From assembly GCA_038147085.1 (NCBI GenBank), contig JAYQSV010000001.1, positions 485,983 through 549,982 of the forward strand: a stretch of DNA of 64,000 nucleotides. The letters run 5' to 3'. Below, piece after piece: positions 2,989-64,000 of this stretch. The notes under the pieces are model-generated. The model did no database searches and was not told the DNA's origin. It saw only the letters and a list, made by a program, of their open reading frames with translations. Both the position numbers and the translations under genes were made by a program. The stretch comes from Candidatus Actinomarina sp. GTDB taxonomy: Bacteria > Actinomycetota > Acidimicrobiia > Actinomarinales > Actinomarinaceae. Position 1 is the stretch's first letter, and each line of letters starts with the position of its first letter.

Positions 2989-2989
2989 T

Positions 2990-17512: not shown

Positions 17513-17654
17513 AAACTTCTTTCCAAAAAAAAACCTCCCACTTTGGGAGGCGCTCAATGCATAACAATGAGCGCTATTTAAGTAATAGCACTAACACTGA
17601 AATGAGAACGTTTAAATTTTTCATTTAGAACTACTATAGTAATCACTACAAAAA
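17513..17654 (-). promoter_or_regulatory. ilvB leader/attenuator: leader peptide ORF, 7-bp hairpin, intrinsic terminator (hairpin + U9)
   Basis: Minus strand reads ATG AAA AAT TTA AAC GTT CTC ATT TCA GTG TTA GTG CTA TTA CTT AAA TAG (MKNLNVLISVLVLLLK). Then hairpin GCGCUCA(uuguuaugcau)UGAGCGC (17550..17574). Then CCUCCCAaagUGGGAGG (17534..17550) + UUUUUUUUU (17525..17533), 12 nt before the ilvB ATG. Confidence 0.65.
17574..17624 (-). CDS. ilvB operon leader peptide MKNLNVLISVLVLLLK (16 aa, 10 of 16 residues Leu/Val/Ile)
   Basis: Short ORF found by eye upstream of ilvB. Branched-chain-rich, with its stop codon overlapping the first hairpin. Confidence 0.6.
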   Translation of the reverse strand: MKNLNVLISVLVLLLK

Positions 17655-26926: not shown

Positions 26927-26953
26927 TCAAATAAACAACTTTCGAGGTGTGTT

Positions 26954-46208: not shown

Positions 46209-46656
46209 AAATTTAGCCTCTAAATTATCTTTTATAATTTTTTTAGTACTTCTAGATTTATCATCAAAATTTTATATCAGATACTTCAATATACAAGAAA
46301 TTGAGATTATTAATGGAATACTAACAATTGACCTTACTTACAACACCGGAATAGCATTTGGATTTTTAAGCGATTATACAGAAATTACCTACTTTTTTTC
46401 ATTAGTAGTGTTTATTTGGTTAATTATTCAATTTAAAAATTCTGCAAATTCAAATTTCGAATTAATTGGACTCTTATTAATAATTTCTGGAGCAATTGGA
46501 AACTTATCTGAACGTGGATGGAATTTAATATTTAATAATAATGGAAAAGTAACAGATTTTATTGAACTGTTATTTATTCCTAGTTTTAATTTTGCAGACA
46601 TGTACATTAGTTTTGGAATTACAATATTTTTGTTTATGGAGTTTAAAAATAAATAA
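46198..46656 (+). CDS. lspA: Lipoprotein signal peptidase II
   Basis: Four TM helices, FNFADMYISFGI catalytic Asp region. Confidence 0.85.
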   Translation: MNLKNLASKLSFIIFLVLLDLSSKFYIRYFNIQEIEIINGILTIDLTYNTGIAFGFLSDYTEITYFFSLVVFIWLIIQFKNSANSNFELIGLLLIISGAIGNLSERGWNLIFNNNGKVTDFIELLFIPSFNFADMYISFGITIFLFMEFKNK

Positions 46657-47314
46657 TATTGAAGTTGTTTTTGAAAATGAAGATTTTGTAATTTTTAATA
46701 AGCCATTTGGTTTATTAACACATAAAAATGCTTCTTCAAATGAAAGCACTTTACAAGATTTTTTAATTGAAAATTATAAATTAGTTGGATACAAAGAAAA
46801 TTTTCGTAAAGGTATTGTCCACAGACTAGACAGAGTTACAAGCGGTTTAATCTTGTGTCCTTTAAGTTATGAAGTACATGCTGAGTTTGAAAAGAAGTTT
46901 AAAAATAGAGAGATATCTAAACAATATAAAGCAATTGTTGAAGGAATTATCTTTCCAAAAAAAGGAGAAATTGACTTACCTCTCAGACACTCATTAAAAA
47001 ATAGAAAAAAAAGAGAAGTCCATCATGAGGGTAGAAAAGCTTTGACACAGTTTGAATTAATAGATAAAAATGAAAGATTTTCATTAATAGATATAAATTT
47101 GATAACAGGGAGAAACCACCAAATACGAGCTCATTTTGAATATTTAAAATATCCAATTGTTAATGATGAATTATATGGAGGAAAAAGAAATTCACTTGTA
47201 CCCAGCAATGCAATTTGCTTGCAATCTTATAAGCTGAAATTTACATTTAATAAAGAAAACTATTTATTTGAATTAGATATTCCAGAATATTTTACTTCAA
47301 TAATGAATGTGTAA
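46649..47314 (+). CDS. RluA-family 23S rRNA pseudouridine synthase (start non-canonical)
   Basis: HRLDRVTSGLIL catalytic Asp motif and DFVIFNKPFGLL. No ATG/GTG after the lspA stop, so ATA 46649 (GGAG 7 nt upstream) or ATT 46658 is proposed. The ORF-track TTG at 46562 would overlap lspA by 95 nt. Confidence 0.7.
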   Translation: MNNIEVVFENEDFVIFNKPFGLLTHKNASSNESTLQDFLIENYKLVGYKENFRKGIVHRLDRVTSGLILCPLSYEVHAEFEKKFKNREISKQYKAIVEGIIFPKKGEIDLPLRHSLKNRKKREVHHEGRKALTQFELIDKNERFSLIDINLITGRNHQIRAHFEYLKYPIVNDELYGGKRNSLVPSNAICLQSYKLKFTFNKENYLFELDIPEYFTSIMNV

Positions 47315-47342
47315 TTCATATAATTTTCTTTAATATGTTTTT

Positions 47343-50300
47343 ATGAATAAATCTTTTGTACATTTACATGCTCATACAGAATATTCTATGCTTGATGGTG
47401 CAGCAAAAATTAAAGATTATTTAAAAAAGGTATCAGAATTAAATCAACCAGCAGCTGCAATAACTGATCATGGCAATTTATATGGTGCTTTAGAATTTTA
47501 CAACGAAGCAATTAAAATTGGCGTTAAACCTATTATTGGATATGAAGCGTATGTAACTCCAACTTCTAGGTTTGAAAGACCTGAAAGAGATAAAAACAAA
47601 AGATATCATTTAACCCTTCTTGCAGAAAACAATGAAGGATATCAAAATCTTGTAGAGCTTGTTAGTAAAGCATACTTAGAAGGTTATTATTACAAGCCAA
47701 GAATTGACTATGAATTATTGGAAGAGTATTCAAACGGCTTAATTGCATTATCAGGTTGTTTAGGTGGTGAGATAGCCCAGTTTTTAGCTCCTGATGGATC
47801 TAAAGAAGAAGGTAATAATGATGCAGTAAGAAGTTATGAAAATGCACTTTTAGTCGCTAAGAAGTATCAACAAATATTTGGACAAGAGAACTTTTTTATC
47901 GAACTTCATAATCACGGGATTCCTCAACAGATTGATATTCTCCCAGATTTAGTTAAAATTTCAAAAGAAATTGGCGCACCACTTGTTGCAACAAATGATT
48001 CACATTATGTTGAGCAGGAAAATTCTTCAGCTCATGATGCATTATTATGTGTACAAACTAATGCAACTCTTGATGATGAAAGCAGATTTAAATTTGAAGG
48101 ATCTGGATATTATATAAAGTCATCAGAAGAAATGAGAGACCTATTTCCAGAGGATATGTATTTAGATGCGTGTGACAACACATTAAAAATTGCAGATAGA
48201 GTTGATTACAGCTTTGAATTCGACAAAACTTATCTTCCTGATTTTCCTATAAGCCAAGATCAATCTACTGAAGAATTATTGAAATCAAAAGTTATTGAAG
48301 GTGCTAAAGAGCGATATAAAAATATTGATGATGAAGTTATGTCCAGAATAAATTATGAATTAGATGTAATTAATACAATGGGTTTCGCTTCTTATTTTTT
48401 AATTGTTGGAGACCTAATTGAGTTTGCAAAAAAAAATAATATCCGAACAGGTGCTGGTAGAGGATCTGCTGCTGGTTCTATAGTTTCATATTGTCTTGGA
48501 ATAACTGGTATTGATCCAATTAAATATGGACTAATTTTTGAAAGATTTTTAAATAAAGGAAGAAAATCATTACCAGATATTGATATGGATTTTGATGAAA
48601 GATATAGAACTGATGTAATAAATTATGCTATTGAAAAATATGGACAAGATAAAGTTGCTCATATTGTAACCTTTGCAACCATTAAAGCAAAGCAGGCTAT
48701 AAGAGATGCAGCTAGAGTACTGGGGTTACCTTTTTCAAGTGGCGACAAAGTGGCAAAGTTAATGCCTCCAATGATATTGGGTAATACAGCCACAATTTCT
48801 GAATGCCTAGAGTTAGATGAAGACAATACTAGTGGTTATAGTAAGGAATTTTATTCTGCCTCTGAAGAACTACGAAAAGAGTACGGTTCAGATAGTGAAG
48901 TAAAAAAAATAATTGATATAGCTTTAGGGTTAGAGGGTTTAAGAAGACAAGACGGCATTCATGCAGCAGCTATAGTAATTTCTCCAGAAAATATTACTAA
49001 TTATTTACCAATTCAAAGAAAAGGTGAAAATGCTGAAATAGTCACTCAATATGAAATGCATACTGTTGAACAATTAGGTTTACTTAAAATGGACTTTTTA
49101 GGTTTAAGAAATTTATCAATTTTAGATAGAACTATCGAATTAATTGGCGACCCGCTGTTTGATATCGATAATGTGTTGCTCGATGATGCTAAAACTTATA
49201 AGTTATTTTCTGAAGGAAGAATGACGGGTGTTTTCCAATTAGAAAGTAGAGTAGCCCAAACTGTATCCAAAAACTTAAATCCAAAAAGATTTGAGGATAT
49301 TGTAGCGCTAGTAGCATTAATAAGACCAGGTCCTTTAGGTGCAGGTATGCATAATGAATTTGCAGATAGAGCAAATTCAAGAAGAGCAATAGAATATTTA
49401 CATAATGATTTAGAGCCAATATTATCTGAAACTTACGGAATAATTTTATATCAAGAACAGGTTATGCAAATTGCTGAAAAAATAGCCGGATTTAATCTTC
49501 AAGAAGCTGATAATTTAAGAGTCGCTATGGGTAAAAAGATTCCAAAAGTAATGGAAGAGCAAAGAATTAAATTTACAGAAGGTGCGACAAATAATGGTTA
49601 CTCTGAACAATTTTCTATTGAGCTTTTTGATCAAATTGCATATTTTGCAGGTTATGGTTTTAACAAAAGTCACTCAGTGCCGTATGCATTATTAGCCTAT
49701 CAAACAGCATATTTGAAAGCTAATTATCCTGCAGAATATTTAGCAGCTTGTTTAACAGCTGTTAAAAGAGATAAAGATAGAACAGCAATATTTTTATCAG
49801 AAGCCCGAGAGCTTGGAGTTTCAGTAAAAACTCCTAATATAAATGTTAGTTTTGAAGATTTTACAGTTAGAGAAAACGAAATATTGTTTGGACTCTCTGC
49901 AGTAAGAAACGTAGGAGATATTACAGCACAAAAAATTGTTCAAGAAAGAAAAGTAAACGGAGACTTTACTTCAGTAGAAGATTTCCTTTCAAGAATTGAT
50001 TCAAGAGCTTTAAATAAAAGAGGTGTTGAAGCTTTAATACAAGGCGGTGGTCTAGATATATTTGGATATACAAGGTATGGTATGTTTGATTCCGCTGTCG
50101 ATCTCATCGAAGAAGCTAGAAGAAATAAATCTAGTTTAAAAAGTATTCAATCATCACTTTTTGAAATTGAAGATAGTACGAATAAGTTGATTCAAATCAG
50201 TAATAAAGAATGGCCAAAAAAAGAGTTTCTCGAAAGAGAAAGAGAAATGCTGGGTTTTTTTGTTAGTGAAGATCCTTTAGAAGGATATGGAAGAGTTCTT

Positions 50301-50837
50301 AGAGCTGAGTCATCACATACCATAATTGAATTACAAGATATTGATGAAGATGAAGAAATTACAGTTACAATTTCAGGACTTGTTTCAAATGTCCAAAAAA
50401 GGGTTTCAAGAAGAGGTAATCCTTGGATCCAATTTGATCTACAGGACGTAACTGGATCTTTAGGAGTGTTACTATTTAATAAATTAGTAGAGAAATATAA
50501 TAATTTATTTGATGGTGAAATTTATTTAAAAATTACTGGAACTTATATTGGAGGAAGTGAAAACTCTATTAGAGCTAGAGATATTGAATTAGTTGAACCT
50601 TCTAAATTATTAGAAGATATAGATACGTCACCTCTTAGAATTTCTGTTAATGAAACTAAACTTGAAAAGAATAATTTAATTTTACTAAAAGAACTATTAA
50701 GCAAGTACCCTGGTCAATCGATTGTAGAATTAGAAGTTGACAGTAATGGAGTTATTAAATTGTTAGAACTAAAAGATATTAAAGTAAGAAAAACTGTACA
50801 ACTAAAAAATGAAATTACTACCTTATTTTCAAGTTAA
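47343..50837 (+). CDS. dnaE: DNA polymerase III alpha subunit
   Basis: PHP domain HLHAHTEYSMLDGA, polymerase core, OB fold. 1164 aa. Confidence 0.95.
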   Translation: MNKSFVHLHAHTEYSMLDGAAKIKDYLKKVSELNQPAAAITDHGNLYGALEFYNEAIKIGVKPIIGYEAYVTPTSRFERPERDKNKRYHLTLLAENNEGYQNLVELVSKAYLEGYYYKPRIDYELLEEYSNGLIALSGCLGGEIAQFLAPDGSKEEGNNDAVRSYENALLVAKKYQQIFGQENFFIELHNHGIPQQIDILPDLVKISKEIGAPLVATNDSHYVEQENSSAHDALLCVQTNATLDDESRFKFEGSGYYIKSSEEMRDLFPEDMYLDACDNTLKIADRVDYSFEFDKTYLPDFPISQDQSTEELLKSKVIEGAKERYKNIDDEVMSRINYELDVINTMGFASYFLIVGDLIEFAKKNNIRTGAGRGSAAGSIVSYCLGITGIDPIKYGLIFERFLNKGRKSLPDIDMDFDERYRTDVINYAIEKYGQDKVAHIVTFATIKAKQAIRDAARVLGLPFSSGDKVAKLMPPMILGNTATISECLELDEDNTSGYSKEFYSASEELRKEYGSDSEVKKIIDIALGLEGLRRQDGIHAAAIVISPENITNYLPIQRKGENAEIVTQYEMHTVEQLGLLKMDFLGLRNLSILDRTIELIGDPLFDIDNVLLDDAKTYKLFSEGRMTGVFQLESRVAQTVSKNLNPKRFEDIVALVALIRPGPLGAGMHNEFADRANSRRAIEYLHNDLEPILSETYGIILYQEQVMQIAEKIAGFNLQEADNLRVAMGKKIPKVMEEQRIKFTEGATNNGYSEQFSIELFDQIAYFAGYGFNKSHSVPYALLAYQTAYLKANYPAEYLAACLTAVKRDKDRTAIFLSEARELGVSVKTPNINVSFEDFTVRENEILFGLSAVRNVGDITAQKIVQERKVNGDFTSVEDFLSRIDSRALNKRGVEALIQGGGLDIFGYTRYGMFDSAVDLIEEARRNKSSLKSIQSSLFEIEDSTNKLIQISNKEWPKKEFLEREREMLGFFVSEDPLEGYGRVLRAESSHTIIELQDIDEDEEITVTISGLVSNVQKRVSRRGNPWIQFDLQDVTGSLGVLLFNKLVEKYNNLFDGEIYLKITGTYIGGSENSIRARDIELVEPSKLLEDIDTSPLRISVNETKLEKNNLILLKELLSKYPGQSIVELEVDSNGVIKLLELKDIKVRKTVQLKNEITTLFSS

Positions 50838-50850
50838 TTATTATTAGTTT

Positions 50851-51060
50851 ATGTCATTAAATTTAGAAGAGTTTATTTCAAGATTTAAAAAAAGAGCCGA
50901 AGCAGTTAAAAGTAGAGCTATCCCTCCAATTGGTGGGGATGAAAGAGCTGCATTCATAAAACAAGCTGAAGTAGATTATCAAGACTTTATGATTATTTCA
51001 GATTCTGAAATTGAAGTTAATGATGAATACTTAATTTTAAAATATAAGTTAGATAAGTAA
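50851..51060 (+). CDS. Hypothetical small protein (69 aa)
   Basis: ORF 13 nt after dnaE. Hydrophilic. No recognisable motif. Confidence 0.3.
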   Translation: MSLNLEEFISRFKKRAEAVKSRAIPPIGGDERAAFIKQAEVDYQDFMIISDSEIEVNDEYLILKYKLDK

Positions 51061-51720
51061 TTACAAATTTTCATTCATTGGAAAAATTTTATTTATAACT
51101 TCAGCACAAGCTTTTGCAATATCCATATGTTCTTTCTGTGTTCCATTTGCAGATCTTAGCTGAATGTAATGTATCCAACTTCTCAATGTACCATTCATGT
51201 ATAATCTGCTAACAGTATTACCTTCTGGTAAAACTGATCTAGCTTGTTCTTTAGCAATACCATTTTCAATAGCCCAATTGTAAGTTTCAATTGCTGAATC
51301 GATTACATTCTGCTGTTTATTTGCCCAAATCTCATTAATTTTTTGATTATCTGAAGGTATTGAGTTTTGCCTGTTCTTTAAATCCTGTAATCGAGCTTCT
51401 CTAATAACAAATTCTAAATCTTTGACTGGATTTGCATACCTCTGACTAAATTCTTGAAAGCTAAATGATCTATGTCTTAACATTTGTCTAGCAATATCTC
51501 TCGTTGTTTCAATCTCGAGACAAGCACTTACCATTTCTAATGGTGACCAATGTGAATTTTTAATTAGATAATTTATCAATTTTTCAGAAGTTTCAGTGTT
51601 TAGTTGATTTGATGGATTTGAAACTCTAGCACAAAATGCTACAAGCTCTTGAGCGTTATCAATACCATCAAGTGCAATCTCTTCAGTTGGCGTAGAATAA
51701 CTTATTAATTTAACTTTCAT
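51061..51720 (-). CDS. thyX: Flavin-dependent thymidylate synthase
   Basis: ThyX signature RHRSFSFQEFSQRY (RHRx7S). Confidence 0.85.
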   Translation of the reverse strand: MKVKLISYSTPTEEIALDGIDNAQELVAFCARVSNPSNQLNTETSEKLINYLIKNSHWSPLEMVSACLEIETTRDIARQMLRHRSFSFQEFSQRYANPVKDLEFVIREARLQDLKNRQNSIPSDNQKINEIWANKQQNVIDSAIETYNWAIENGIAKEQARSVLPEGNTVSRLYMNGTLRSWIHYIQLRSANGTQKEHMDIAKACAEVINKIFPMNENL

Positions 51721-51750
51721 TTATGTAACTATATTAAAATATTTAAAAAT

Positions 51751-52014
51751 ATGTTTTTACTTAGAATAATTGTTTTTTTAATTATCTCGTCTTTGTTATT
51801 AATACTAAGCTACCCACTTTTAATTGTATTTGATATTTCTAGAGGAGGAAATGGCTTTGGAATATGTGATGATTTAGTTCAATGTAATATCCCAATTACA
51901 GAAGGTCCAAGATTATTAGTTTTATTAATATCTTTATTTTTTGTATTAGTTTTAATGCTAAGAGGTGTTATGAAGTTTATTAATACAATTAATAAAGAAA
52001 AATCTATTCTTTGA
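51751..52014 (+). CDS. Hypothetical small membrane protein (87 aa)
   Basis: Two hydrophobic segments, no homology recognised. Confidence 0.25.
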   Translation: MFLLRIIVFLIISSLLLILSYPLLIVFDISRGGNGFGICDDLVQCNIPITEGPRLLVLLISLFFVLVLMLRGVMKFINTINKEKSIL

Positions 52015-52885
52015 TAACATAAAATATAGATACTAAAACTAACAAAACTCCAAACCAATTTAAAACACCTAGAATTTCATTTGCTATCAATAAACCAATT
52101 AGTAGTGCAAAGATTGCCTCTAAACTCAAAATTAAAGCTGATGTGGATGCCGTAACAACTTTTTGTCCATATAACTGCAAATAGAACGCAGCAACATTTA
52201 CGACTAATCCTAAGAATAAAATAGGTAATAATAATTCATTTGAAAAAATAAAATTTTTAAAGTTTAGAAATGGTAAACATAGAATTGATCCAGCAAAAGA
52301 TTGTACAAACATTAATTGAGAAATTTTAAAGTTGTTAACGTACCTTTCAACCAGGACAATATGAATAGCATATGAAAGTGCACATAATAAAGTAAATAAA
52401 TTTCCTGATATTTGTGATAAATCATTAATAGAAATGAGCACTATTCCAAAAAACCCAACAATTGATAAAATATAATTTTTTTTTGGAATATTATTTTTAT
52501 TTATAATTTTAGAAATATATGGAGTCAAAACTATATAAAACCCGGTTACTACACCAGAATTGACTGTACTTGTGGTAATAAGACCTTGAGTTTGAGTTAT
52601 GTAACCTAGCCAAAGGAAGAACCCCATTAACACTCCAGGATAAAAAGCTTGCTTTCTTGGAAGACCACCAATGAATAAAAATAATATAGAAGCAATAAAA
52701 AAACGAGCAAAAACAATTAAAACAGGAGATACAGTAATTAATAAGTTTTTAACAACTAAGAAAGTTGAACCAAAAAAAAGAGCAGATATAATTAACGCAA
52801 AATATGCTTTGAGCTTTTGATTGGTACCCATAGGATTGAACATTATTATATAACTTAAATTAAAAATATGAGTACTAAGAAACAA
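52004..52885 (-). CDS. EamA/DMT-family transporter
   Basis: 10 TM helices with duplicated EamA-like halves. Real start probably the internal ATG near 52831, which would avoid a head-to-head overlap with nth. Confidence 0.7.
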   Translation of the reverse strand: MFLSTHIFNLSYIIMFNPMGTNQKLKAYFALIISALFFGSTFLVVKNLLITVSPVLIVFARFFIASILFLFIGGLPRKQAFYPGVLMGFFLWLGYITQTQGLITTSTVNSGVVTGFYIVLTPYISKIINKNNIPKKNYILSIVGFFGIVLISINDLSQISGNLFTLLCALSYAIHIVLVERYVNNFKISQLMFVQSFAGSILCLPFLNFKNFIFSNELLLPILFLGLVVNVAAFYLQLYGQKVVTASTSALILSLEAIFALLIGLLIANEILGVLNWFGVLLVLVSIFYVIKE

Positions 52886-53509
52886 ATAAAGGCTAATAAA
52901 ATTCTAAACATTTTAGAAGAGATTTACCCTTCGGTCCCAATTCCACTTCATCACAGAGACCCGTTTACTTTATTAGTAGCAGTGGTGTTATCAGCACAAT
53001 GTACAGATGTTCGTGTAAATCAAGTAACCCCTGATTTATTTAAAGTAGGTGGAACACCGAAAAAAATGTCTCAACTACCGGTGCAGAAAATTGAAAAATT
53101 AATACGACCTTGTGGTCTATCACCGCAAAAATCAAAAGCTATAAAAAAATTATCAAAAATAATATTTGAAAAATATAATTCAAAAGTACCGGAGAGTTTT
53201 AGTGAATTAGAAGAATTACCAGGAGTAGGACATAAAACAGCTTCAGTGGTTATGAGCCAGGCATTCAACGTTCCTGCATTTCCAGTAGATACACATATTC
53301 ATAGACTTGCATATAGATGGGGTTTGTCATCAGGTAAGAATGTTGTGCAAACTGAAAAAGATTTAAAAAAAGTCTTTCCTAAAAATAAATGGAACAAGCT
53401 TCATCTTCAATTTATTTTTTATGGAAGAGAGTATTGTCCTGCAAGAGGACATGACATAACAAATTGTATTATTTGTAATCTATATGGAAGAAAAGTTAAT
53501 TTTAAATAA
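52868..53509 (+). CDS. nth: Endonuclease III
   Basis: HhH-GPD motif (LPGVGHKTASVV) and C-terminal Cx6Cx2Cx5C [4Fe-4S] cluster. Confidence 0.85.
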   Translation: MSTKKQIKANKILNILEEIYPSVPIPLHHRDPFTLLVAVVLSAQCTDVRVNQVTPDLFKVGGTPKKMSQLPVQKIEKLIRPCGLSPQKSKAIKKLSKIIFEKYNSKVPESFSELEELPGVGHKTASVVMSQAFNVPAFPVDTHIHRLAYRWGLSSGKNVVQTEKDLKKVFPKNKWNKLHLQFIFYGREYCPARGHDITNCIICNLYGRKVNFK

Positions 53510-53553
53510 AACCTCTTTAGAATATATTTTTTAACTCTGTCTATATTTGGATA

Positions 53554-54261
53554 GTGGATATTAATTTTAGTATCGCTTTTATATTTGGATTTCTATCTTT
53601 TTTCTCACCTTGTGTATTACCTTTAGTACCAGGCTATTTAGCTATATTTTCACTACAAAGAAATCACAGCTATGAGAAATTAATTGGTGCAATACAATTT
53701 GTATTTGGATTCTCAGTAGTATTCATATCTTTAGCTGCAATAACAACTTCAATTGGTTCATTTTTTACAAAAAATGCAAGTTTACTTTCAAAAGTTAGTG
53801 GAGTAATAATAATTATTTTTGGACTGATTTTATTAATACCAAAATTAAATTCAAAATACTTCTTTAGTTCGAATTTTATTAATATTGACAATTTTAAAAA
53901 AACCAAAAATTTTATTATGGGTTTTACTTTTGGTTTCGGTTTTACACCATGTATAGGACCAGTTTTAGGTGCGCTATTAACTTTGTCTTCAAATGCAGAG
54001 ACTGCTCAATCTGGAATATTTTATTTAGTATTTTTTTCTCTCGGCTTGGGAATACCATTTATAACAATTTCTGTAATTTCCAATAAAGTTAATTTTAAAA
54101 ATAGAATTTTTATTGAAATTCAAAAAATTTCCTCAAAGCTTTCAGGATTAACACTATTGTTTATTGGAACATTAATTTATATGGACAAAATGTATTTGTT
54201 AGCCTCTTTTTTTCAAAATTTATTAATATCATTAAATTTAGAATGGTTAAGTACGATCTAA
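53554..54261 (+). CDS. ccdA: Cytochrome c-type biogenesis thiol-reductant transporter CcdA (DsbD family)
   Basis: FFSPCVLPLVP and second-half Cys (TPCIGP) in a 6-TM protein. Confidence 0.8.
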   Translation: MDINFSIAFIFGFLSFFSPCVLPLVPGYLAIFSLQRNHSYEKLIGAIQFVFGFSVVFISLAAITTSIGSFFTKNASLLSKVSGVIIIIFGLILLIPKLNSKYFFSSNFINIDNFKKTKNFIMGFTFGFGFTPCIGPVLGALLTLSSNAETAQSGIFYLVFFSLGLGIPFITISVISNKVNFKNRIFIEIQKISSKLSGLTLLFIGTLIYMDKMYLLASFFQNLLISLNLEWLSTI

Positions 54262-54262
54262 A

Positions 54263-54835
54263 ATGACGAAATTATATTCCGATTATGCTTTAAAAATTTC
54301 AGGTAAAGATGCATTTACCTTTATAGATTCATTAATTTCAAATAAAGCTGAAATAGAAAAGTATAAAGGATCATATTTTTTAAAACCTGATGGAAAAATA
54401 GATTACTGGTTTTTAGTGACTTTGCGGAGTGATGTAATTTATATACTACAACAAAAAGAAATTCTTTTATTATTAAAGAATTCGTTAGAGAAATATAAAA
54501 TTCGTATAAATTGCGACCTAGAAATTATTGAAGAGATAAATGTATTCGAACTCTCTAATGAAAATGATGAACTTTCAGTTAAAAAAATAAATGACAAATT
54601 TGAAAATGAAAATTGGAAATCAGTTTGTTTAGAGCTGTCCCTACCGACATTGGAAATAATAGCAGGTGGAATTATGCCAAATGAAGTTAATATGCTTGAA
54701 AGCTTTGTTGATTACTATAAAGGTTGTTTTTTAGGACAAGAACAAACTTCTAGAGTAAAGTTTAGAGGTAAACCAAGAAGAATTTTAAAAACTAATGAAA
54801 ATAATACCCAAGAAATTATAAAACTTTTAAATTAA
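54263..54835 (+). CDS. YgfZ/GcvT-like folate-binding protein (short form)
   Basis: C-terminal KGCFLGQE matching the YgfZ KGCYxGQE signature. Confidence 0.6.
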   Translation: MTKLYSDYALKISGKDAFTFIDSLISNKAEIEKYKGSYFLKPDGKIDYWFLVTLRSDVIYILQQKEILLLLKNSLEKYKIRINCDLEIIEEINVFELSNENDELSVKKINDKFENENWKSVCLELSLPTLEIIAGGIMPNEVNMLESFVDYYKGCFLGQEQTSRVKFRGKPRRILKTNENNTQEIIKLLN

Positions 54836-54841
54836 AAAAAT

Positions 54842-55153
54842 ATGGAACCCAGATGTAACTACTGTGGTAGAAAAGTTTTTAAAAATAGATCTCAAAAATA
54901 TAATCTATGTTCCAAGAATTGTAAAAAATTATATTTAAAAAAAGATGACATTATTTCTTTTGAAAACAGAATAAAAGAGATAGTAAAGCATAAGCCTATT
55001 CAAATTTTACAAATACAAAAAGAATTCAGTAAAAGTGAAAAATTTATGGTTATTTCTGCTATTCGTAGACTTATTTACTTTCATAATTTCTTTATTAGTC
55101 AATCAAATAACGAAATAACACAAAAAAGCTATATAATCAGAGTGAAAAAATAG
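54842..55153 (+). CDS. Hypothetical small Cys-rich protein
   Basis: CNYCGRK...CSKNCKK putative zinc ribbon. No further homology. Confidence 0.3.
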   Translation: MEPRCNYCGRKVFKNRSQKYNLCSKNCKKLYLKKDDIISFENRIKEIVKHKPIQILQIQKEFSKSEKFMVISAIRRLIYFHNFFISQSNNEITQKSYIIRVKK

Positions 55154-55781
55154 CACCTTTATCAAATTTTTTTAAAGAATATTGAACTATTGGTCCAACA
55201 GTTAAAACCATAAAAATTGTACCAACTCCATACGACCCTCCTAAAAACACCCCAACTATAAATGCTGAAAAATCAATTGCAACTCTAGTAGCCCTAATAC
55301 TTGGGCCAAGTTTTGAAATACCTACCATAATTCCATCTCTTGGACCAGGACCAAGTCCTGCTCCAACATAAATTCCTACACCAACTGCAAAACATATTGT
55401 TCCAAAAACTAAATAAAATATTTTTAAAAACAAATTACTTGGCGTTGGTAAAAAAAACATAACTAAATCGATAACATTTCCAATAATTAATATATTTAAA
55501 ATCGTTCCAATAAAAGGTTTTTGCTTTAAAGGAATCCAACCTAATAAAATAATGATTCCAGTTATAACTCCAGCGAATCCAATTTTAACATTTATTAATT
55601 GGCTAAAACCATCATGGAAAACATCCCAAGAATTTAAGCCCAAGTTAGCTTCAATAGTAAAAGCTAAACCAAATCCACATAAAAATAGTCCGAATATTAG
55701 CTGTGGTAATCTTGAAATTATTACCTTATTCATTTTGAAAAATGCTTTCAAGTATTGAAATATTCTCAGGACATAATTCAT
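55137..55781 (-). CDS. YczE/YitT-like membrane protein (putative)
   Basis: Five or six TM helices, Gly-rich C-terminal half. Confidence 0.4.
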   Translation of the reverse strand: MNYVLRIFQYLKAFFKMNKVIISRLPQLIFGLFLCGFGLAFTIEANLGLNSWDVFHDGFSQLINVKIGFAGVITGIIILLGWIPLKQKPFIGTILNILIIGNVIDLVMFFLPTPSNLFLKIFYLVFGTICFAVGVGIYVGAGLGPGPRDGIMVGISKLGPSIRATRVAIDFSAFIVGVFLGGSYGVGTIFMVLTVGPIVQYSLKKFDKGAIFSL

Positions 55782-56097
55782 AAACAGCTTGGAATCTTAA
55801 AATTGGAAGAATTCTATCCATTATTTCTACTTTAAGTCCAAAATTTAATAATATTTTTGAAATTTGATTTAATGAGTCGTCAGAATTTTTCCATTCGGAA
55901 CTCGAACTACAAATACTTTTCCCAAGCGATACTACTTCTTCAAAAGTTAAATTTTTTAATGTTTTTTCACTATCTGAAATAATAATTTGATTATAAAACT
56001 CCTCACCATAGCTCGAAGGCTGTAATGATTTATATGCAATAAAAAGTGTTATAAAAGATATGAGTAACAACAAAAATATAGCTAATTTATTTTTCAT
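55726..56097 (-). CDS. Hypothetical secreted or membrane-anchored protein
   Basis: N-terminal signal/anchor MKNKLAIFLLLLISFITLFIA. No motif. Confidence 0.35.
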   Translation of the reverse strand: MKNKLAIFLLLLISFITLFIAYKSLQPSSYGEEFYNQIIISDSEKTLKNLTFEEVVSLGKSICSSSSEWKNSDDSLNQISKILLNFGLKVEIMDRILPILRFQAVYELCPENISILESIFQNE

Positions 56098-56120
56098 ATT
56101 TTAATCAATTCTTTAAATAG

Positions 56121-56202
56121 TACCCGGAGGGGGAGTCGAACCCCCACATCCGAAGATACTGGATTTTGAATCCAGCGCGTCTGCCAATTCCGCCATCCGG
56201 GC
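56121..56202 (-). tRNA. tRNA-Leu (anticodon CAA)
   Basis: Reverse complement GCCCGGATGGCGGAATTGGCAGACGCGCTGGATTCAAAATCCAGTATCTTCGGATGTGGGGGTTCGACTCCCCCTCCGGGTA. Has D-arm, anticodon loop UUCAAAA, long variable arm and GGTTCGA T-loop. CCA is not encoded. Confidence 0.85.
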
Positions 56203-56267
56203 TATATACCGATTATATTTCATATGTAGATGAATGGAGAAAAAATTATTAAGTTAAAATGAAATAA

Positions 56268-58771
56268 ATGATTATCCTAATTGACGGACATAGCATTGCG
56301 TTCAGAGCATTTTATGCTTTACCAGAAACATTAGTTACAAAAGATGGTTTTCCAACGAATGTAATTCATGGTTTTTTAATGATGCTATCAAAATTAGTTA
56401 AAGATTATGAACCTGAGCAGATAATTGTAACTTGGGATATTTCAAAAACAACATTTAGATCAGAAATTTTTCCAGACTACAAAGCTAATAGAACTTCATC
56501 ACCAGAAATTTTTAAAGTTCAAATAAAAAGTCTTCAGCAGCTACTCAAAAACTTTAATATCCCACAAGTTACAGCTGAAGGTTTTGAAGCTGATGATGTT
56601 CTAGGTTCTCTAGCTTTTAAATTTAATAAAGAGAATAAAGAAGTTCATATATTAACTGGTGATAGAGATTCTTTTCAATTAATTAATAACTCTACAAAAA
56701 TTCTTTTTACAAGAAAAGGAATTAGTAATATAGAAGTTTTTGATCAATCATTTTTTGAAGAAAGTTTTCAAATTTCTACTGAACAATACATTGAATATCT
56801 TGCTTTAAAGGGAGATCCTTCTGACAATATACCAGGGGTACCTGGAATTGGTGAAAAAACTGCTAAATCTTTATTGATTCAATATAAAACTATCTCAAAT
56901 ATTTTAGATAATGTTGAATCACTAAGTCCAAAAATTAGAGATAGCTTAATTCAAAATAAAGAATTGCTAGAGCTAAGTAGAAAACTTGCAACAATTAAGA
57001 AGGATTTAAAATTAGAACTTCCAACTCTAACTATTCATGATTCAATTTTTTTTAATGAGAAAATTTTAAATAATTGTATTGAAGATATAAATTCTTATGA
57101 ATTAAATAGATTTCTTGGAACCTCAGAAGCAAAAAAAAATGAAACTACTAACAAAATAAACTCTATTAGAGAATTAGATAAAAAAACAAAATTACAAGGT
57201 AAATATATAGTTTTCTTACACAATGATTATTTTTATTTCACCAATGGTAAAGATTACGGAAAATCTAAATCAATAGGAATCTTTCAAGAAGTAATTTCAG
57301 TTAATTCTCAAAATATCGCATTATTTGATTCTCAAATTTTAGATATTAAAAATTTTATTGCTTTAGATTGTATATTATTTTTGATTAATCCTTCAAATAA
57401 ACCCGACTCAATTTTAAATGTTTGTAAGTCAATAAATATTCTTAATAATTTAGACAAAAAATCAGATGAAATCAGTTTTTTGAATTTTTTTCATGAAAAT
57501 TTTAAAAATGTAATTAAAATTTTATCAAATTTTAATAAAGATAAAATAAGTCTTAATTTATACAAAGAAATCGATTTTCCAATGTTAGAAATTCTTTCAA
57601 GCATGGAAAAAAATGGAATAAATGTTTCATTAAAAAAAATGAAGAATTGTCTAATTCTCTTTCTGTAGAACTCAAAGAGTTGCAAAAGAAATGCTTTTCA
57701 CTTTCAGGGATAGAGTTTAATTTAAACTCTCCAAAACAATTATCGGAAGTACTTTTTCAAAAATTAAACCTCCCAATAATAAAAAAAACACCTTCAGGGG
57801 CACCTTCTACTGATGCGAGTGTACTTGAAGAATTATCTATAAATAATGAACTTCCAGCAGTAATTTTAAAGTACAGAGAACTTGAAAAGATAAGATCAAC
57901 ATATGTTGACGGATTAATTCCAGAAGTCTCAAACGAAGAAAAAATTCATACTCATTACAACCTTTTTGGAGCAGCTACTGGTAGATTGTCTTCTGAAAAA
58001 CCAAATTTACAAAATATTCCAAACAAAACAGAACTTGGTCAAAAAATTAGAGATTTTTTTATAGCATTACCAAATCATAAATTTGTAATTTCAGATTACT
58101 CACAAATTGAATTAAGAGTTTTAGCACACTTAAGCAATGATAAGGAGATGATTAAAATCTTACAAAATGTCGATTCTGATATCCACTCAGAGACAGCTTC
58201 AAGGATATTTAATGTAGATATTTCAAAAGTTGATTATGAAATGAGGAGAAAAGCTAAAGAAGTAAATTTTGGACTTATTTATGGAATGGAAGCATTTGGA
58301 TTGTCAAAAAGTTTAAATATTGAACAAAAAGAAGCAAGCAAATTAATTGAAAATTATTTTTCACAATTTCCTTCTATTAGAGGGTATTTAGAGGAAGTAG
58401 TTAAGTCAGCTGAAGAAAAAACTTATACATCAACTTTACTAGGAAGAAAGCGGTATATAAATGAACTTTCTTCATCTAGTTTTCAGATTAGATCAATGGG
58501 TAAAAGAATCGCTATGAATGCTCCAATTCAAGGCACAGCCTCAGATATTATGAAAAAAGCTATGGTAAATATCTCTAAAAAAATAGAGAATTATGATGAT
58601 ACTAAAATATTACTTCAGATACATGATGAGATTGTTGTTGAGTCATCTGATGTCAGTGTACAAAAAATTAAAGAGATAGTTGAAATAGAAATGAAGAACG
58701 CTGCAAGATTAAAAGTTCCATTGTTTGTTAATACTAAAGTTGCAACAACTCTTGCAAATTTTAATAATTAG
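56268..58771 (+). pseudogene. polA: DNA polymerase I, split in two ORFs by a -1 frameshift in an A8 run (57632..57639)
   Basis: ORF1 (56268..57668) holds the 5'-3' exonuclease and proofreading-like region. ORF2 (57647..58771) holds the polymerase palm/fingers (DYSQIELR, QIHDEIVVE). Inserting one A at 57632..57639 gives the continuous ...GINVSLKKNEELSNSLSVELKELQ.... Confidence 0.85.
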
Positions 58772-58836
58772 TTTGTAAAAAACACAGATATGTTATTCTT
58801 ATTCACGCAATACTATGAATGGACAAATAAAAACAA

Positions 58837-60105
58837 ATGACAGATAATTCAGTTGAAGCTAGTTCGGCTTCTAATGTCGTTGAACTTCCAGATAATATAA
58901 AACCAGAAGATTTTCCAACACTCCTCGAAAAGACTCTTGTATCTTTTAATAATGGTGATGTTATTGAGGGTACAGTTGTCAAAGTTGATAGAAATGAAGT
59001 AATGGTTGACGTTGGTTATAAATCAGAAGGAATAATACCCTCTAGAGAATTATCAGTACGCAAAGGTGTTAATCCGAAAGATTTGATTAAACAAGGTGAA
59101 AAAATTAAAGCTCTTGTGTTAGAAAAAGAAGATGATGAAGGTAGGTTAATTCTTTCTATTAAAAGAGCAGTTTACGAAAAAGCCTGGGGTGACATTCAAG
59201 AAATTGCAGATTCAAAGAAATCCATAAAAGGAACAGTAATTGAGTCAGTTAAAGGTGGTTTGATAGTTGATATTGGAGTTAGAGGATTCTTGCCTGCATC
59301 ATTAATTGATGTTCGAAGAGTTAAAGAATTAACTGCTTATGTTGGAGAAGAAATTGAAGCCAAGATTTTAGAACTTGATCGACAAAAGAATAACATTGTA
59401 CTATCAAGGAAAGCTCATCTTGAAGAAGAACTTTCAGAAGAGCGACAAGGTTTTCTCGATGATTTACAAATAGGAGATGTCAAAGATGGAAAAATTTCTT
59501 CAATTGTTTCATTTGGTGCTTTTGTTGATATTGGTGGTATGGATGGATTGGTTCATGTTTCAGAACTTTCTTGGAGGCATGTTGAAAACCCCAATGAAGT
59601 TGTAAAAGTTGGTGACACAGTTACAGTTAAGGTACTTGAAATTGATAATGACAAAGAAAGGATATCTTTATCTATAAAGCAAGTTAAAGAGGATCCTTGG
59701 TTAGATTTTGAATTACATTATAAAGAAAATGATGTAGTTGAAGGTGAAGTTACAAAAGTTGTTCCATTCGGTGCATTTATAACTATTGGCAAAGGTGTTG
59801 AAGGTTTAGTGCATGTTTCTGAAATTTCTACAGAAAAAATTGATTCTCCTGAATTAGCTCTTGCACTCGGTCAAAAAGTTAAAGTTAAAATTACAGAATT
59901 AGATATTGAAAAAAGAAGAGTAAACCTTTCTATTAAGCAAGCAGATCCTAATTGGAAAGATGTTGAAGTAGAAAAAAATTCACCAAAAACTCACTCATCT
60001 GAATCTGAGGAAGCAGCTCCAAAACGTCAAACTGTTGAAGGTGTTGATGAGTCATTAGAAAATATTCTTCAAGAACTAAAAGAAAGAGGAATAGGAAACT
60101 CTTAG
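58837..60105 (+). CDS. rpsA: 30S ribosomal protein S1
   Basis: Four tandem S1 domains with an actinobacterial-type N-terminus. Confidence 0.9.
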   Translation: MTDNSVEASSASNVVELPDNIKPEDFPTLLEKTLVSFNNGDVIEGTVVKVDRNEVMVDVGYKSEGIIPSRELSVRKGVNPKDLIKQGEKIKALVLEKEDDEGRLILSIKRAVYEKAWGDIQEIADSKKSIKGTVIESVKGGLIVDIGVRGFLPASLIDVRRVKELTAYVGEEIEAKILELDRQKNNIVLSRKAHLEEELSEERQGFLDDLQIGDVKDGKISSIVSFGAFVDIGGMDGLVHVSELSWRHVENPNEVVKVGDTVTVKVLEIDNDKERISLSIKQVKEDPWLDFELHYKENDVVEGEVTKVVPFGAFITIGKGVEGLVHVSEISTEKIDSPELALALGQKVKVKITELDIEKRRVNLSIKQADPNWKDVEVEKNSPKTHSSESEEAAPKRQTVEGVDESLENILQELKERGIGNS

Positions 60106-60135
60106 TTTATTTTTTTTAGCACGTATTCTGTTTCT

Positions 60136-60699
60136 ATGGCTAAAAAAGTTTTCTTCGTTACTGGTCCAATTGGTAGTGGGAAGAGTACAGCTACTGAATA
60201 CTTAAAATCTAAAGGATTTTTAACAATTGATTTAGATATTATTTCTAATGAAATTTTACAAAGTACTCGGTCAGCAAATTTTCTTTCAAGCAATTTTCCT
60301 GAAGCAATAAGTAAAAACGCAATAGATAAGCAAAAATTAGCAAACATTGTTTTTAAAGATTCAAATAAATTAAAAATCTTAGAAGATTTTTTACATCCTA
60401 AAATTCAGGAAAAATTATTGGAAATTCTTACAAAAACTGATCAAGTTGTTTTTGTTGAAATTTCTGCACCAAAAAAAATAGAAAGTGACATAGATTATCT
60501 AGTTATTTTTTCAGATTTAGAAACAAGAAAAAATAGACTACTCAGCAGAGGCATGTTAATTAATGACATAGAAAATCGTATAGAATCACAAAAGGATGAT
60601 GATTGGTGGTTAAATGCTGGTTATACAATCACCAATAAGAACCTAGAACAATTATTTAAGGATATTGACAACTTCCTAAAATTAAATAATTTGGAATAA
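60136..60699 (+). CDS. coaE: Dephospho-CoA kinase
   Basis: VTGPIGSGKST P-loop. About 190 aa. polA-rpsA-coaE synteny. Confidence 0.85.
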   Translation: MAKKVFFVTGPIGSGKSTATEYLKSKGFLTIDLDIISNEILQSTRSANFLSSNFPEAISKNAIDKQKLANIVFKDSNKLKILEDFLHPKIQEKLLEILTKTDQVVFVEISAPKKIESDIDYLVIFSDLETRKNRLLSRGMLINDIENRIESQKDDDWWLNAGYTITNKNLEQLFKDIDNFLKLNNLE

Positions 60700-60734
60700 T
60701 CGAACAGATGTTCTATTTGATATAATAAATTGCT

Positions 60735-62732
60735 ATGATACCATTTCAAGTTAAATCAGAGTTTAAACCAAAAGGCGATCAGCCTAATGCAATTGAAGAG
60801 TTGTATCAGGGATTACAGAATGGAAACGATTTTCAAACACTTAAAGGAATTACTGGATCAGGTAAATCTGCAACCATTGCATGGTTGATTGAGAAATGTC
60901 AATTACCAACACTTGTTTTAGCACCTAACAAAGCTTTAGCTGCACAGTTAGCAAATGAGTTTAGGCAATTCTTTCCAGATAATAGAGTCGAATATTTTGT
61001 GTCTTATTATGACTATTACCAACCAGAAGCTTATGTTCCAAGAACTGATACTTTCATCGAGAAAGATGCAAATATAAATGAAGAAATTGATAGGTTAAGA
61101 CATTCCGCAACGAGTGCTCTTTTGTTGAGAAATGATGTCATCGTTGTATCTTCGGTTTCATGTATTTATGGACTTGGATCACCAGAAGAATACAAAAATA
61201 AGTTAATACCAATTCAATTAGGTCATGAATACGATTTAGATAAATTGTTATTAGATTTGGTAAAACAACAGTACACAAGAAATGATTTAGTTGTTAATAG
61301 AGGTTCTTTCAGGGTTAAAGGCGATACATTAGATATTTTTCCAGTTTATGAAGAAACTATTTTTCGAATTGAGTTCTTTGGTGATGAGGTAGAAAATATA
61401 TCAAGAATAGACCCAACAACTGGAGAAATTCTTGAAAAACTTGGTGAGTTAGCCATACTACCTGCTACACATTATGTTATTTCAGAAGATTTGAAGAAAA
61501 ATGCCATAAATAAAATAAAAGAAGACTTAGACGAACAAATTAAAAAATTTGAAAGTGAAAATAAGCTTTTGGAAGCACAAAGAATTGCACAAAGAACTAA
61601 TTTTGATTTAGAAATGATTTCTGAATTGGGGGTATGTTCTGGAATTGAAAATTATTCAAGATATTTTGATGGAAGAAATCCAGGTGAACCACCTTATACT
61701 TTAATAGATTTTTTTGGTGACAATTTTTTAATGGTAGTTGATGAAAGCCATATAGCCATCCCACAAATAAGAGGACAATATGAAGGTGATAAATCGAGAA
61801 AAACTACATTAGTTGATTATGGGTTTAGATTGCCTGCTGCTTTAGACAATAGGCCTTTAAAATTTGATGAATGGAAAAGTAAAGTAAAGAAAACTGTACT
61901 TGTTTCAGCAACTCCTGGAAAATGGGAGAATGAAAATTCACAACTTTTTGTTGAGCAAATAATAAGACCAACAGGACTTTTAGATCCAAATGTTGTTATA
62001 AAGCCAACTGAAAATCAGATACATGATTTATTAGCAGAAATAAAAAATGTCATTAACAATGGAAATAGAGTGCTTGTAACAACATTAACAAAAAAAATGA
62101 GCGAAGCTTTAAGTGATTTTTTACTCAAATCTGGAATTAAAACTAGATACCTACATTCTGATATAGACACTTTAGAAAGAATTGAGATTTTAAGAGATTT
62201 AAGAAAGGGTGAGTTTGATGTTTTGGTAGGCATTAATTTATTGAGAGAAGGTTTAGACTTACCAGAAGTTCAGTTAGTTGCAATTTTGGACGCTGATAAA
62301 GAAGGTTTTCTGAGATCAGAAACAAGTTTAATTCAGACAATAGGAAGAGCTGCAAGAAATAAAGATGGTTACGTCATTATGTATGCGGATAAGTATACAG
62401 ATTCTATGACAAAAGCTGTTCAGGAGACTAAGAGAAGAAGAGCTTTACAAGAAGAACATAATCGAAAACACAACATTACACCAAAGACAATTGAAAAAGG
62501 AATTACCGATATACTTGAATTAGTTGAAAAAACGCGAGCATCTGATTCTTCTGGATTATCAAAATCTAGCTTAGACATAACTAATGCATCAAAAGAAGAC
62601 TTAATAAAATTATCTAAAAATATAGAAATTGAAATGAAATCAGCTGCAGAATTACTTGAATTCGAGCTTGCTGCTAGATTAAGAGACGAGTTAAAAGAAT
62701 TAAGAAAAGAAATACAAGAATTTTCATTATGA
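60735..62732 (+). CDS. uvrB: Excinuclease ABC subunit B
   Basis: GITGSGKS Walker A, beta-hairpin region, C-terminal UVR coiled coil. Confidence 0.95.
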   Translation: MIPFQVKSEFKPKGDQPNAIEELYQGLQNGNDFQTLKGITGSGKSATIAWLIEKCQLPTLVLAPNKALAAQLANEFRQFFPDNRVEYFVSYYDYYQPEAYVPRTDTFIEKDANINEEIDRLRHSATSALLLRNDVIVVSSVSCIYGLGSPEEYKNKLIPIQLGHEYDLDKLLLDLVKQQYTRNDLVVNRGSFRVKGDTLDIFPVYEETIFRIEFFGDEVENISRIDPTTGEILEKLGELAILPATHYVISEDLKKNAINKIKEDLDEQIKKFESENKLLEAQRIAQRTNFDLEMISELGVCSGIENYSRYFDGRNPGEPPYTLIDFFGDNFLMVVDESHIAIPQIRGQYEGDKSRKTTLVDYGFRLPAALDNRPLKFDEWKSKVKKTVLVSATPGKWENENSQLFVEQIIRPTGLLDPNVVIKPTENQIHDLLAEIKNVINNGNRVLVTTLTKKMSEALSDFLLKSGIKTRYLHSDIDTLERIEILRDLRKGEFDVLVGINLLREGLDLPEVQLVAILDADKEGFLRSETSLIQTIGRAARNKDGYVIMYADKYTDSMTKAVQETKRRRALQEEHNRKHNITPKTIEKGITDILELVEKTRASDSSGLSKSSLDITNASKEDLIKLSKNIEIEMKSAAELLEFELAARLRDELKELRKEIQEFSL

Positions 62733-64000
62733 ATCAAGAATTTTTAAAAATAAGAGGAGCCAAAGAACACAATTTAAAAAACATTTCTGTGGATATACCA
62801 AAAAACTCTCTTGTTGTAATAACAGGTCTATCTGGATCAGGTAAATCTTCATTAGCCTTTGACACTATATACGCAGAAGGACAAAGAAGATATGTAGAGA
62901 GTCTTAGTGCATATGCTCGACAATTTTTAGGACAAATGGAAAAGCCAAATGTCGAAAGTATTGAAGGTCTATCTCCTGCTATAGCAATAGATCAAAAAAC
63001 TTCATCAAGAAGCCCCCGTTCAACAGTTGGCACAGTAACTGAGATCCAAGATTATCTAAGACTTTTATGGGCTAGAATTGGAATTAGTTACTGTCCAAAA
63101 TGTAATAAAAAAATTGATAAACAATCAATTAACTTTATCGTTAAACAAATTTTGCAGCTAGGTGAAAATAAAAACATTGATGTTTTAGCACCAATAATAA
63201 AGTCAAGAAAAGGTGAGTTCGATACATTATTTAAAGATTTACAGTCCCAAGGATTCTCAAGAGTTTTAGTTGATGGTGAAATTGTTAGGTTAGAAGAAGC
63301 TACAAAACTTGATAGATATTTCAATCATGATATTTCAGTAGTTATAGATAGAATAAAAATTCAAAAAACACCAAGCAGAAGATTAACCCAATCTATTGAA
63401 ACAGCCATTAATTTGACTAAAGGCCAGGTTGATATAAGAATTGAAAAAACTACGCAATCATTTAGTCAAAACTTAGGTTGTGTTGATTGTGGTTTATCCT
63501 TTGATAAATTAGAACCTCGTGATTTTTCATTTAATTCTCCATTCGGCGCTTGTGTAAATTGCAATGGAATTGGTGTAAGTTATGAAATAGATGAGAAATT
63601 ACTAGTAAAAGATTTTGAGTTATCAATTGATCAAAATGTTTTTCCTGACATGTCTACACGTAAGTTTTTTCGAGCGCAAATTTTTGGTGTTTGTGAAGAA
63701 TTTAAAATTCCAACTGATGTTCCTTATAAGAATTTAAGCAAAAACCATAGAGATATATTACTTAATGGAAGTAATGGAGTGGAAACAATTATTAGATATG
63801 TAAACAGGTTTGGTAATTCAAGAAAATGGTATAGACCTTATAGTGGAATTATTCCAATGTTTAAAAGACTCTACGAAGAAACAAAATCTGATTCAGCTAG
63901 GGAATATTATCAACAATTTATGAGAGAGCTTCCATGTCGAGGTTGTGATGGTGAAAGGTTCAATGAAAGATCTAGAAAAGTAAAAATTGAGAATACTACA
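62729..64000 (+). CDS. uvrA: Excinuclease ABC subunit A (3'-truncated by window edge)
   Basis: Starts with ATG overlapping the uvrB stop (ATGA). MNQEFLKIRGAKEHNLKNISVDIPKNSLVVITGLSGSGKSSLAFDTIYAEGQRRYVESLSAYARQFLG. Not in the ORF track because no stop falls inside the window. Confidence 0.95.
   Translation, partial: MNQEFLKIRGAKEHNLKNISVDIPKNSLVVITGLSGSGKSSLAFDTIYAEGQRRYVESLSAYARQFLGQMEKPNVESIEGLSPAIAIDQKTSSRSPRSTVGTVTEIQDYLRLLWARIGISYCPKCNKKIDKQSINFIVKQILQLGENKNIDVLAPIIKSRKGEFDTLFKDLQSQGFSRVLVDGEIVRLEEATKLDRYFNHDISVVIDRIKIQKTPSRRLTQSIETAINLTKGQVDIRIEKTTQSFSQNLGCVDCGLSFDKLEPRDFSFNSPFGACVNCNGIGVSYEIDEKLLVKDFELSIDQNVFPDMSTRKFFRAQIFGVCEEFKIPTDVPYKNLSKNHRDILLNGSNGVETIIRYVNRFGNSRKWYRPYSGIIPMFKRLYEETKSDSAREYYQQFMRELPCRGCDGERFNERSRKVKIENTT

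Follow-up and report, generated by a model that had tools for sequence, protein, structure and literature searches.

A private single-base frameshift in polA of a streamlined actinobacterium lies beside, not within, an A8 run and is probably a consensus artefact

Organisation of the polA locus

The window, by which we mean the whole 64,000-nucleotide stretch of DNA that was analysed, is densely coding and has a G+C content of 29%. It comes from a streamlined actinobacterium related to the Actinomarinales, and the nearest named orthologues, which are about 62% identical, are annotated as Candidatus Actinomarina or Acidimicrobiaceae. A preliminary description of this DNA had reported a polA gene that is split into two overlapping open reading frames. 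This is borne out by an ORF scan of the window, in which the coordinates of the two forward-strand frames agree with the Pfam domains that they encode (Table 1). ORF1 carries the 5'-3' exonuclease (FEN) domain in residues 2-252, with matches to 5_3_exonuc_N (PF02739, E = 1.6e-52) and 5_3_exonuc (PF01367, E = 7.3e-29), and it contains the first 32 or so residues of the polymerase domain, beginning at residue 428 (nucleotide 57549). It ends with ...SLKKMK, followed by a seven-residue out-of-frame tail, NCLILFL, and a stop codon. The reading frame of ORF2 has been open since 57557, so the two frames overlap over 57557..57668, and its product matches DNA_pol_A (PF00476, E = 1.5e-140) over profile positions 8-378 of 381.

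When the frame is repaired, the resulting protein finds its best match among solved structures in 6VDE, the Pol1 of Mycobacterium smegmatis (E = 2e-154), followed by Taq Pol I (E = 7e-143), and its homology to the polymerase of both begins at residue 428. It shares its architecture and its length with these enzymes, that of Taq being 832 amino acids long. A Pfam search (E <= 0.001) of ORF1 detected no 3'-5' proofreading exonuclease family; this is consistent with the Taq/mycobacterial subtype of Pol I, which does not have a 3'-5' exonuclease, and differs from the E. coli type, which has a proofreading domain. The locus is an ordinary polA, encoding an 834-amino-acid Pol I composed of FEN, spacer and family-A polymerase. 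Whereas all of the relatives are single-chain, the window polA does not encode one uninterrupted polypeptide: it is split at 57644, and the break, at residue 459/460, falls about 32 residues into the polymerase domain and not at a domain boundary.

The surroundings of polA show conserved synteny, with the order polA-rpsA-coaE-uvrB, which is shared with mycobacteria; in contig L001, a relative of the same species, uvrA and uvrC are found further along. Most of the MEGAHIT contigs that were fetched through polA start within the tRNA-Leu(CAA) gene that lies directly upstream.

Table 1. Features of the polA locus in the window
Feature	Position	Strand	Description
tRNA-Leu(CAA)	56120..56202	-	directly upstream of polA; context
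polA ORF1	56268..57668	+	466 aa; stop TAG 57666..57668
A8 run	57632..57639	+	wild-type length; frame (TT)A AAA AAA A(TG) = L-K-K-M
Heptamer A AAA AAA	57632..57638	+	X_XXY_YYZ form of a slippery site, in the zero frame
Lesion	57642..57646	+	AAGAA in the window, AAGGAA in 11 same-species contigs; one G gone at 57644
polA ORF2	57647..58771	+	374 aa from TTG; remainder of the family-A polymerase domain
Polymerase motif A, DYSQIELR	58094..58117	+	intact in ORF2
Polymerase motif B, RRKAKEVNFGLIYG	58244..58285	+	intact in ORF2
Polymerase motif C, QIHDE	58616..58630	+	intact in ORF2
rpsA (S1 domains)	58837..60105	+	downstream of polA, followed by coaE and uvrB; conserved synteny, context

Position of the missing base

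The frameshift had been placed within the A8 homopolymer in the preliminary description, with A9 as the intact state, and comparison with orthologues had been proposed. The run is present, and one added A does produce a single ORF of 834 amino acids, but the comparison shows that A8 is the wild-type length and moves the lesion five nucleotides downstream. Alignment of the closest relative, L001 (GCA_038153385.1), with window positions 46268..64000 gives 99.86% identity over 17,734 nucleotides, with 24 mismatches and one gap; this single gap is one G of a GG pair at 57644, five nucleotides beyond the A run, and the run in L001 is also A8. The relatives read ATG AAG GAA TTG where the window reads ATG AAG AAT TGT, and a three-way alignment that includes L002 (98.9%) identifies the window as having the derived state. 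The junction was read in 24 related contigs (among them L001, L002, L003, L004, L013, L014, L017, L082-L085, L087 and L088-L098), which extend from 99.9% DNA identity to 79% protein identity in a MAG from the Caspian Sea (L017) and include four contigs of a clade at about 92%, five JGI contigs at 92-94% and 11 more contigs of the same species at 99.5-99.7%. In every one of them the run is A8 and is in frame (TTA AAA AAA ATG).

The protein sequences tell the same story. The junction of the intact orthologues is SLKKMKELSNS, with ...MKDLS in more distant clades and ...MKNLS as variants; the junction that had been expected from the addition of an A, SLKKNEELSNS, is two residues off. A search with the repaired protein returned P0001 (834 amino acids, reported as 100% identical), from which it differs only by Q205K and at the junction, together with hundreds of full-length orthologues of 831-834 amino acids. 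Because ORF1 still reads ...SLKKMK, the frame is right through the A run. The window contains 34 A/T runs of at least 8 nucleotides and no gene is broken at any of the others, so the A8 run is not special in itself. Judged from these alignments, the split comes from one absent G just past an A8 run of normal length. The finding of A9 in sequencing reads, which had been suggested as the observation that would refute a true frameshift, is ill-chosen for this purpose: all relatives with an intact gene have A8, and A8 reads are expected either way. The informative difference is that between G and GG at 57644, or between TT and TTT at 57647-57648.

Two explanations that give the A run a leading part fare badly against this comparison. 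In one, the intact state is A9 and the window has lost one A from it, as a homopolymer sequencing error or by a real contraction that is rescued by slippage of the endosymbiont type. The restoration of the ORF by one added A and the AT-richness of the genome (29% G+C) speak for it, but the comparative data have already refuted it: A8 is present in each intact relative, out to 79% protein identity; orthologues have LKKMKEL and the window still encodes LKKMK; and the alignment gap falls at the GG pair, outside the A run. The poly(A) frameshifts of Buchnera and Blochmannia resemble the polA split in that the genome is AT-rich, a poly(A) tract lies near the frameshift and a single A in the mRNA restores the frame. 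Those lesions are changes in tract length, however, in tracts that are usually of 9-10 nucleotides or longer, whereas the tract in the window has the ancestral A8 length that is seen throughout its intact orthologues, the lesion lies five nucleotides downstream and the organism is free-living. In the other explanation polA is naturally split, or is expressed by a conserved programmed frameshift as dnaX is. The slippery heptamer in the zero frame and the conservation of A8 in relatives agree with it, and dnaX (A AAA AAG with its stimulators) shares a zero-frame heptamer placed just upstream of the -1 shift that is needed. Unlike dnaX, the window has neither a hairpin downstream nor a Shine-Dalgarno-like stimulator upstream, and its two-frame layout is not conserved. 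No stimulatory structure was found in 57640..57720 (z = +1.08; 174/200 shuffles fold at least as well), and no Shine-Dalgarno-like element is visible upstream, such motifs being generally missing from the genes here. All of the relatives are in one frame across the junction, which excludes a programmed frameshift, and conservation of A8 is accounted for by codon bias, because Leu-Lys-Lys-Met is written TTA AAA AAA ATG at 29% G+C. We regard both explanations as extremely improbable. The broad choice that had been offered between artefact, pseudogene and slippage-rescued gene stands, while a change in the length of the A8 run fails as its mechanism.

Distribution of the deletion and accuracy of the assembly

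The deletion is private to the window contig. It is absent from all 13 of the other contigs of the same species (L001, L002 and L088-L098; 99.5-99.9% identity, with L002 at 98.9% in the three-way alignment), each of which has an intact reading of the 834-amino-acid type at the lesion site, and so the deletion allele is represented by one assembly among 14 same-species sequences and is missing from independent assemblies of the same population. A single frame crosses the junction in all relatives, although the polA of L002 has a separate private break. No other member of the ORF1 protein cluster has the frameshifted tail, and when the out-of-frame C terminus of ORF1 was used as a protein query, its sole match was an adapter-contaminated fragment of 138 amino acids. 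An exact-pattern scan for both alleles (CATTAAAAAAAATGAAG[N]AATTGTCTAA) found none in JGI metagenome and GTDB genome contigs. A looser pattern found seven loci, five of which are the intact polA of the 92-94% clade; L081, an apparent deletion allele, and L086 proved to be unrelated chance matches to this pattern. A search of genome contigs for related loci found only the Caspian Sea MAG relative with 79% protein identity and no locus from the source species.

The polA gene of the window is free of decay and has intact catalytic motifs. Its four private substitutions (at 56564, 57530, 57833 and 57994) are all third-position and synonymous, which implies that the deletion, if it is real, is very recent or that the gene is still under selection. 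When overlaps between stop-to-stop ORFs were surveyed across the 64 kb together with Pfam matches, polA proved to be the only split gene: the candidates CcmH/CcmF and ilvC/ilvN, a cytochrome-c assembly gene with its ABC-2 transporter neighbour, and a trio of MerR-like, HNH and MraZ genes all turned out to be distinct genes. The broken polA of L002 raised the possibility that the lineage loses this gene repeatedly. We rejected it: with four private indels in the 12.9 kb compared for L002, its polA break looks like noise.

The window belongs to an NCBI contig of 1,012,864 bp, and short-read assemblies from the same population break at 6-20 kb. This difference in length suggests that the window contig is of long-read origin. 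Its accuracy was assessed against same-species contigs that together span most of the window, over the 40,458 positions that are covered by at least four contigs at 99.4% identity or above; here 72 substitutions and two 1-nucleotide indels are private to the window. One of the indels is the polA G at 57644; the other is a T3 to T4 change at 39593, which is intergenic, lies upstream of ftsZ and is contradicted by 7/7 high-identity contigs of the same species. The 12.5 kb around polA that same-species short-read contigs overlap contains 180 runs of at least 5 nucleotides, 30 of them of at least 7, and all of these have the same length in the short-read contigs. Over the 40,458 positions the sole homopolymer that differs from any contig is A9 versus A10 at 17525, a run that is also variable among the short-read contigs themselves. 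The consensus of the window is good, yet it is not free of private indels in short runs. In the sister contig L002 (1.04 Mb), one private indel breaks polA (A7 to A9) and a DsbD-like gene is shifted out of frame twice; such changes show that long contigs of this lineage can hold consensus indels. In a set of 84 nanopore Actinomarina genomes, 0.5% of genes are reported to carry residual indels or unique frameshifts (bioRxiv 10.64898/2026.04.03.716425). The window presents the same picture of an isolated split gene in one genome on a streamlined actinobacterial contig of about 1 Mb, and a frameshift unique to one genome would count as technical under the criteria of that study. It differs from the residual indels of long reads in that the missing base belongs to a GG pair and not to the adjacent long homopolymer, and in that the long homopolymers around polA match the short-read contigs.

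The codon at the lesion varies within the population. The major allele, ATG AAG GAA TTG (string AAGGAATTG), is found in 11 contigs of the same species, and a minor allele, ATG AAG AAT TTG (MKNL, P0129; AAGAATTTG), is found in L088 and L089, same-species MEGAHIT contigs from two independent short-read assemblies. The minor allele amounts to the major allele minus a G and plus a T. The window string, AAGAATTG, differs from the major allele by the lack of one G and from the minor by the lack of one T, and the deletion reads ...AAAAAAAATGAAGAATTGTC... across the lesion site. We put the likelihood that a deletion placed at random would hit the polymorphic codon like this at roughly 1%, which is low enough for the coincidence to need an explanation. 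Candidates are a half-resolved mixture of alleles, a real intermediate of a compensated frameshift and a local misalignment hotspot. The flanking markers 56927T, 57190A, 58300A and 59091A group the window with L001 and L002, and 57682A and 58435A, which are private to L088 and L089, are missing from it. More distant clades have GAT at the polymorphic codon.

Origin of the missing G and its meaning

We favour the explanation that the missing G is an artefact of consensus or assembly, to which we assign a probability of roughly 0.6. The consensus of a long-read metagenome assembly would have dropped one G of AAG GAA at 57644, perhaps because the alleles AAG GAA TTG and AAG AAT TTG were mis-resolved in such a way that the deletion was called and the insertion was not; the Pol I of the cell would then be a normal single chain that reads ...SLKKMK(E/N)LSNS... 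at the junction. The artefact is favoured by the restriction of the lesion to one long contig and its absence from the other contigs of the same species (0/13 carry it), by its occurrence in a strongly constrained housekeeping gene without decay, by the second private 1-nucleotide indel at 39593 and by the position of the site on a polymorphic codon, where half-calling of a complex variant fits what is seen. Population genetics predicts that, in a free-living population of huge size, null alleles in the polymerase domain of Pol I will be very rare, and residual indels per gene in long-read MAGs are commoner than such alleles. Against the artefact, errors from noisy reads typically strike long runs and not a GG pair, and the long runs here are accurate; two private indels set beside 72 substitutions are compatible with natural variation; and one of the two indels is intergenic, as would be expected of real variation that has been filtered by selection.

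These last points are shared by the alternative that the strain has a real and very recent frameshift, with or without leaky rescue, which is possible though at well below even odds. In such a strain the truncated Pol I would keep its full flap exonuclease, the part most often needed for the maturation of Okazaki fragments, and its polymerase domain would be missing or poorly expressed; E. coli is viable with a polA mutation that removes the polymerase domain and leaves the 5' nuclease in place. A leak of full-length product could arise by a -1 slip of the ribosome or by insertion of an A by RNA polymerase. The computed product of the -1 slip is full-length (834 amino acids, with no stop) and has ...LKKNEEL... 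for ...LKKMKEL...; the A AAA AAA heptamer, five nucleotides before the deletion, is in the zero frame, and the deletion itself lies inside the overlap of the two frames; and the four synonymous substitutions fit a very recent event or a leaky gene that is still selected. On the other side, the allele occurs in just one of 14 same-species sequences, the population shows clear purifying selection on polA and the heptamer is followed by no stimulatory RNA structure. The break bisects the polymerase domain, with the consequence that ORF2 alone is unlikely to fold. For the same reason, re-initiation at TTG 57647 to make a separate polymerase chain is functionally doubtful; the genes here generally have no Shine-Dalgarno motifs, and ribosome-binding sites therefore offer no guide at this codon. 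The literature on slippage also bears on rescue at A8. [quoted passage not shown] E. coli RNA polymerase is reported to require more than 7 A and to bypass indels poorly (PMC6260861), and by that measure A8 is marginal for slippage. A genome-wide transcriptome of Buchnera revealed no reading frame restored by transcription error (PMC5574713). On these thresholds, any rescue at A8 would be low-level and accidental; it would amount to a nearby mutation being suppressed by chance, in contrast to the Buchnera/Blochmannia lesions, which change the length of a poly(A) tract. A special case of a real mutation makes the window the surviving midpoint of a path from AAG GAA TTG through AAG AAT TG to the AAG AAT TTG of L088 and L089, with the deletion buffered by a leak at A AAA AAA/A8 and by the retained FEN half, and with AAG AAT TTG as its compensated descendant. 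The window is indeed one indel from both natural alleles, an arrangement with a chance of the order estimated above, and the minor allele has been assembled twice independently. The flanking markers, however, place the window with L001 and L002 and not with L088 and L089, and GAA and AAT can each derive from an ancestral GAT by one substitution, so that no frameshifted intermediate is required. We consider this special case improbable.

Whether it is the favoured artefact or a real deletion, the split is of an ordinary and known kind, a single-base frameshift in one metagenome-derived genome. Annotation of this genome should treat polA as probably intact, or flag it as "frameshifted, needs read check". 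The case also illustrates that a homopolymer beside an ORF break does not locate the lesion: near-identical contigs shifted it by five nucleotides, and in doing so changed the question from A8 versus A9 to G versus GG. The split should not be scored as the loss of polA from a streamlined genome. A real deletion would provide a modest but tidy example of a frameshift in a housekeeping gene of a free-living bacterium that is buffered by an adjacent slippery site; and if the path through AAG AAT TG is the true one, a compensated-frameshift trajectory would have been caught midway in a free-living, streamlined planktonic bacterium.

Sequence variation at the polA junction and in neighbouring lineages

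The junction at which polA is split in the window is also the site of a natural amino-acid polymorphism. Two same-species short-read contigs, L088 and L089, carry AAT in place of the major-allele GAA at 57644..57646, which exchanges glutamate for asparagine at the N-terminal end of the polymerase domain (E460N), and both differ additionally at 57682 and 57718. In more distant clades the codon for residue 460 is GAT, encoding aspartate.

Substitutions private to the window are dense in two short segments, with 23 in approximately 290 nt at 10464..10755 and four in 11 nt at 11260..11270, against a background private divergence of about 0.1-0.2%. These clusters suggest short recombination tracts whose source was a more divergent lineage.

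Most of the MEGAHIT contigs fetched through polA, from the same species (the 99% clade) and from its relatives at approximately 92-94% identity (the 92% clade), start at the equivalent of position 56123, inside the gene for tRNA-Leu(CAA). This common start suggests a break in the assembly graph at sequence that is identical between co-occurring species.

Other features of the window

Features located in the window (positions in window numbering)
Feature	Position	Strand	Details
RNase P RNA, bacterial class A	2989..3325	-	278 bits
GC-rich hairpin (CCTCCC...GGGAGG) followed by A9 run	17525..17542		T9 on minus strand; upstream of acetolactate synthase gene
HNH-endonuclease ORF	26927..27457	+	Pfam HNH_5/HNH, residues 94-136 of stop-to-stop frame
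Second private 1-nt indel	39593		Intergenic; gene end 39546, ftsZ start 39641
tRNA-Leu(CAA)	56120..56202	-	

The RNase P RNA fills a 412-nt gap between ORFs. The hairpin and the A-run that follows it look like a terminator or attenuator; the length of the run varies between 9 and 10 among same-species short-read contigs. The HNH-endonuclease ORF has no in-frame ATG, GTG or TTG upstream of 27203, so some 90 of its N-terminal codons are without a canonical start. Its frame opens immediately behind the TAA stop codon of a MerR-like gene that lies upstream in the same frame. Read-through, loss of the original start codon or use of a non-canonical one could each account for this arrangement.

Private indels as a measure of assembly reliability

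In the sister genome L002 (GCA_038142085.1; 1.04-Mb contig), a 12.9-kb stretch contains four private indels, at the equivalents of 53653, 54206, 54834 and 57179, and two of the four are frameshifts in a DsbD-like gene. Another of the four breaks the polA of L002 itself: A7 has become A9, leaving an exonuclease-only ORF of 314 aa and a polymerase ORF of 463 aa. These indels look like the product of a noisy long-read consensus rather than of recurrent polA loss. At its second private indel the window has T4, where T3 is found in all seven high-identity same-species contigs that cover the position and also in L101. This difference is a useful calibrator of the reliability of short-run indels in the window's assembly.
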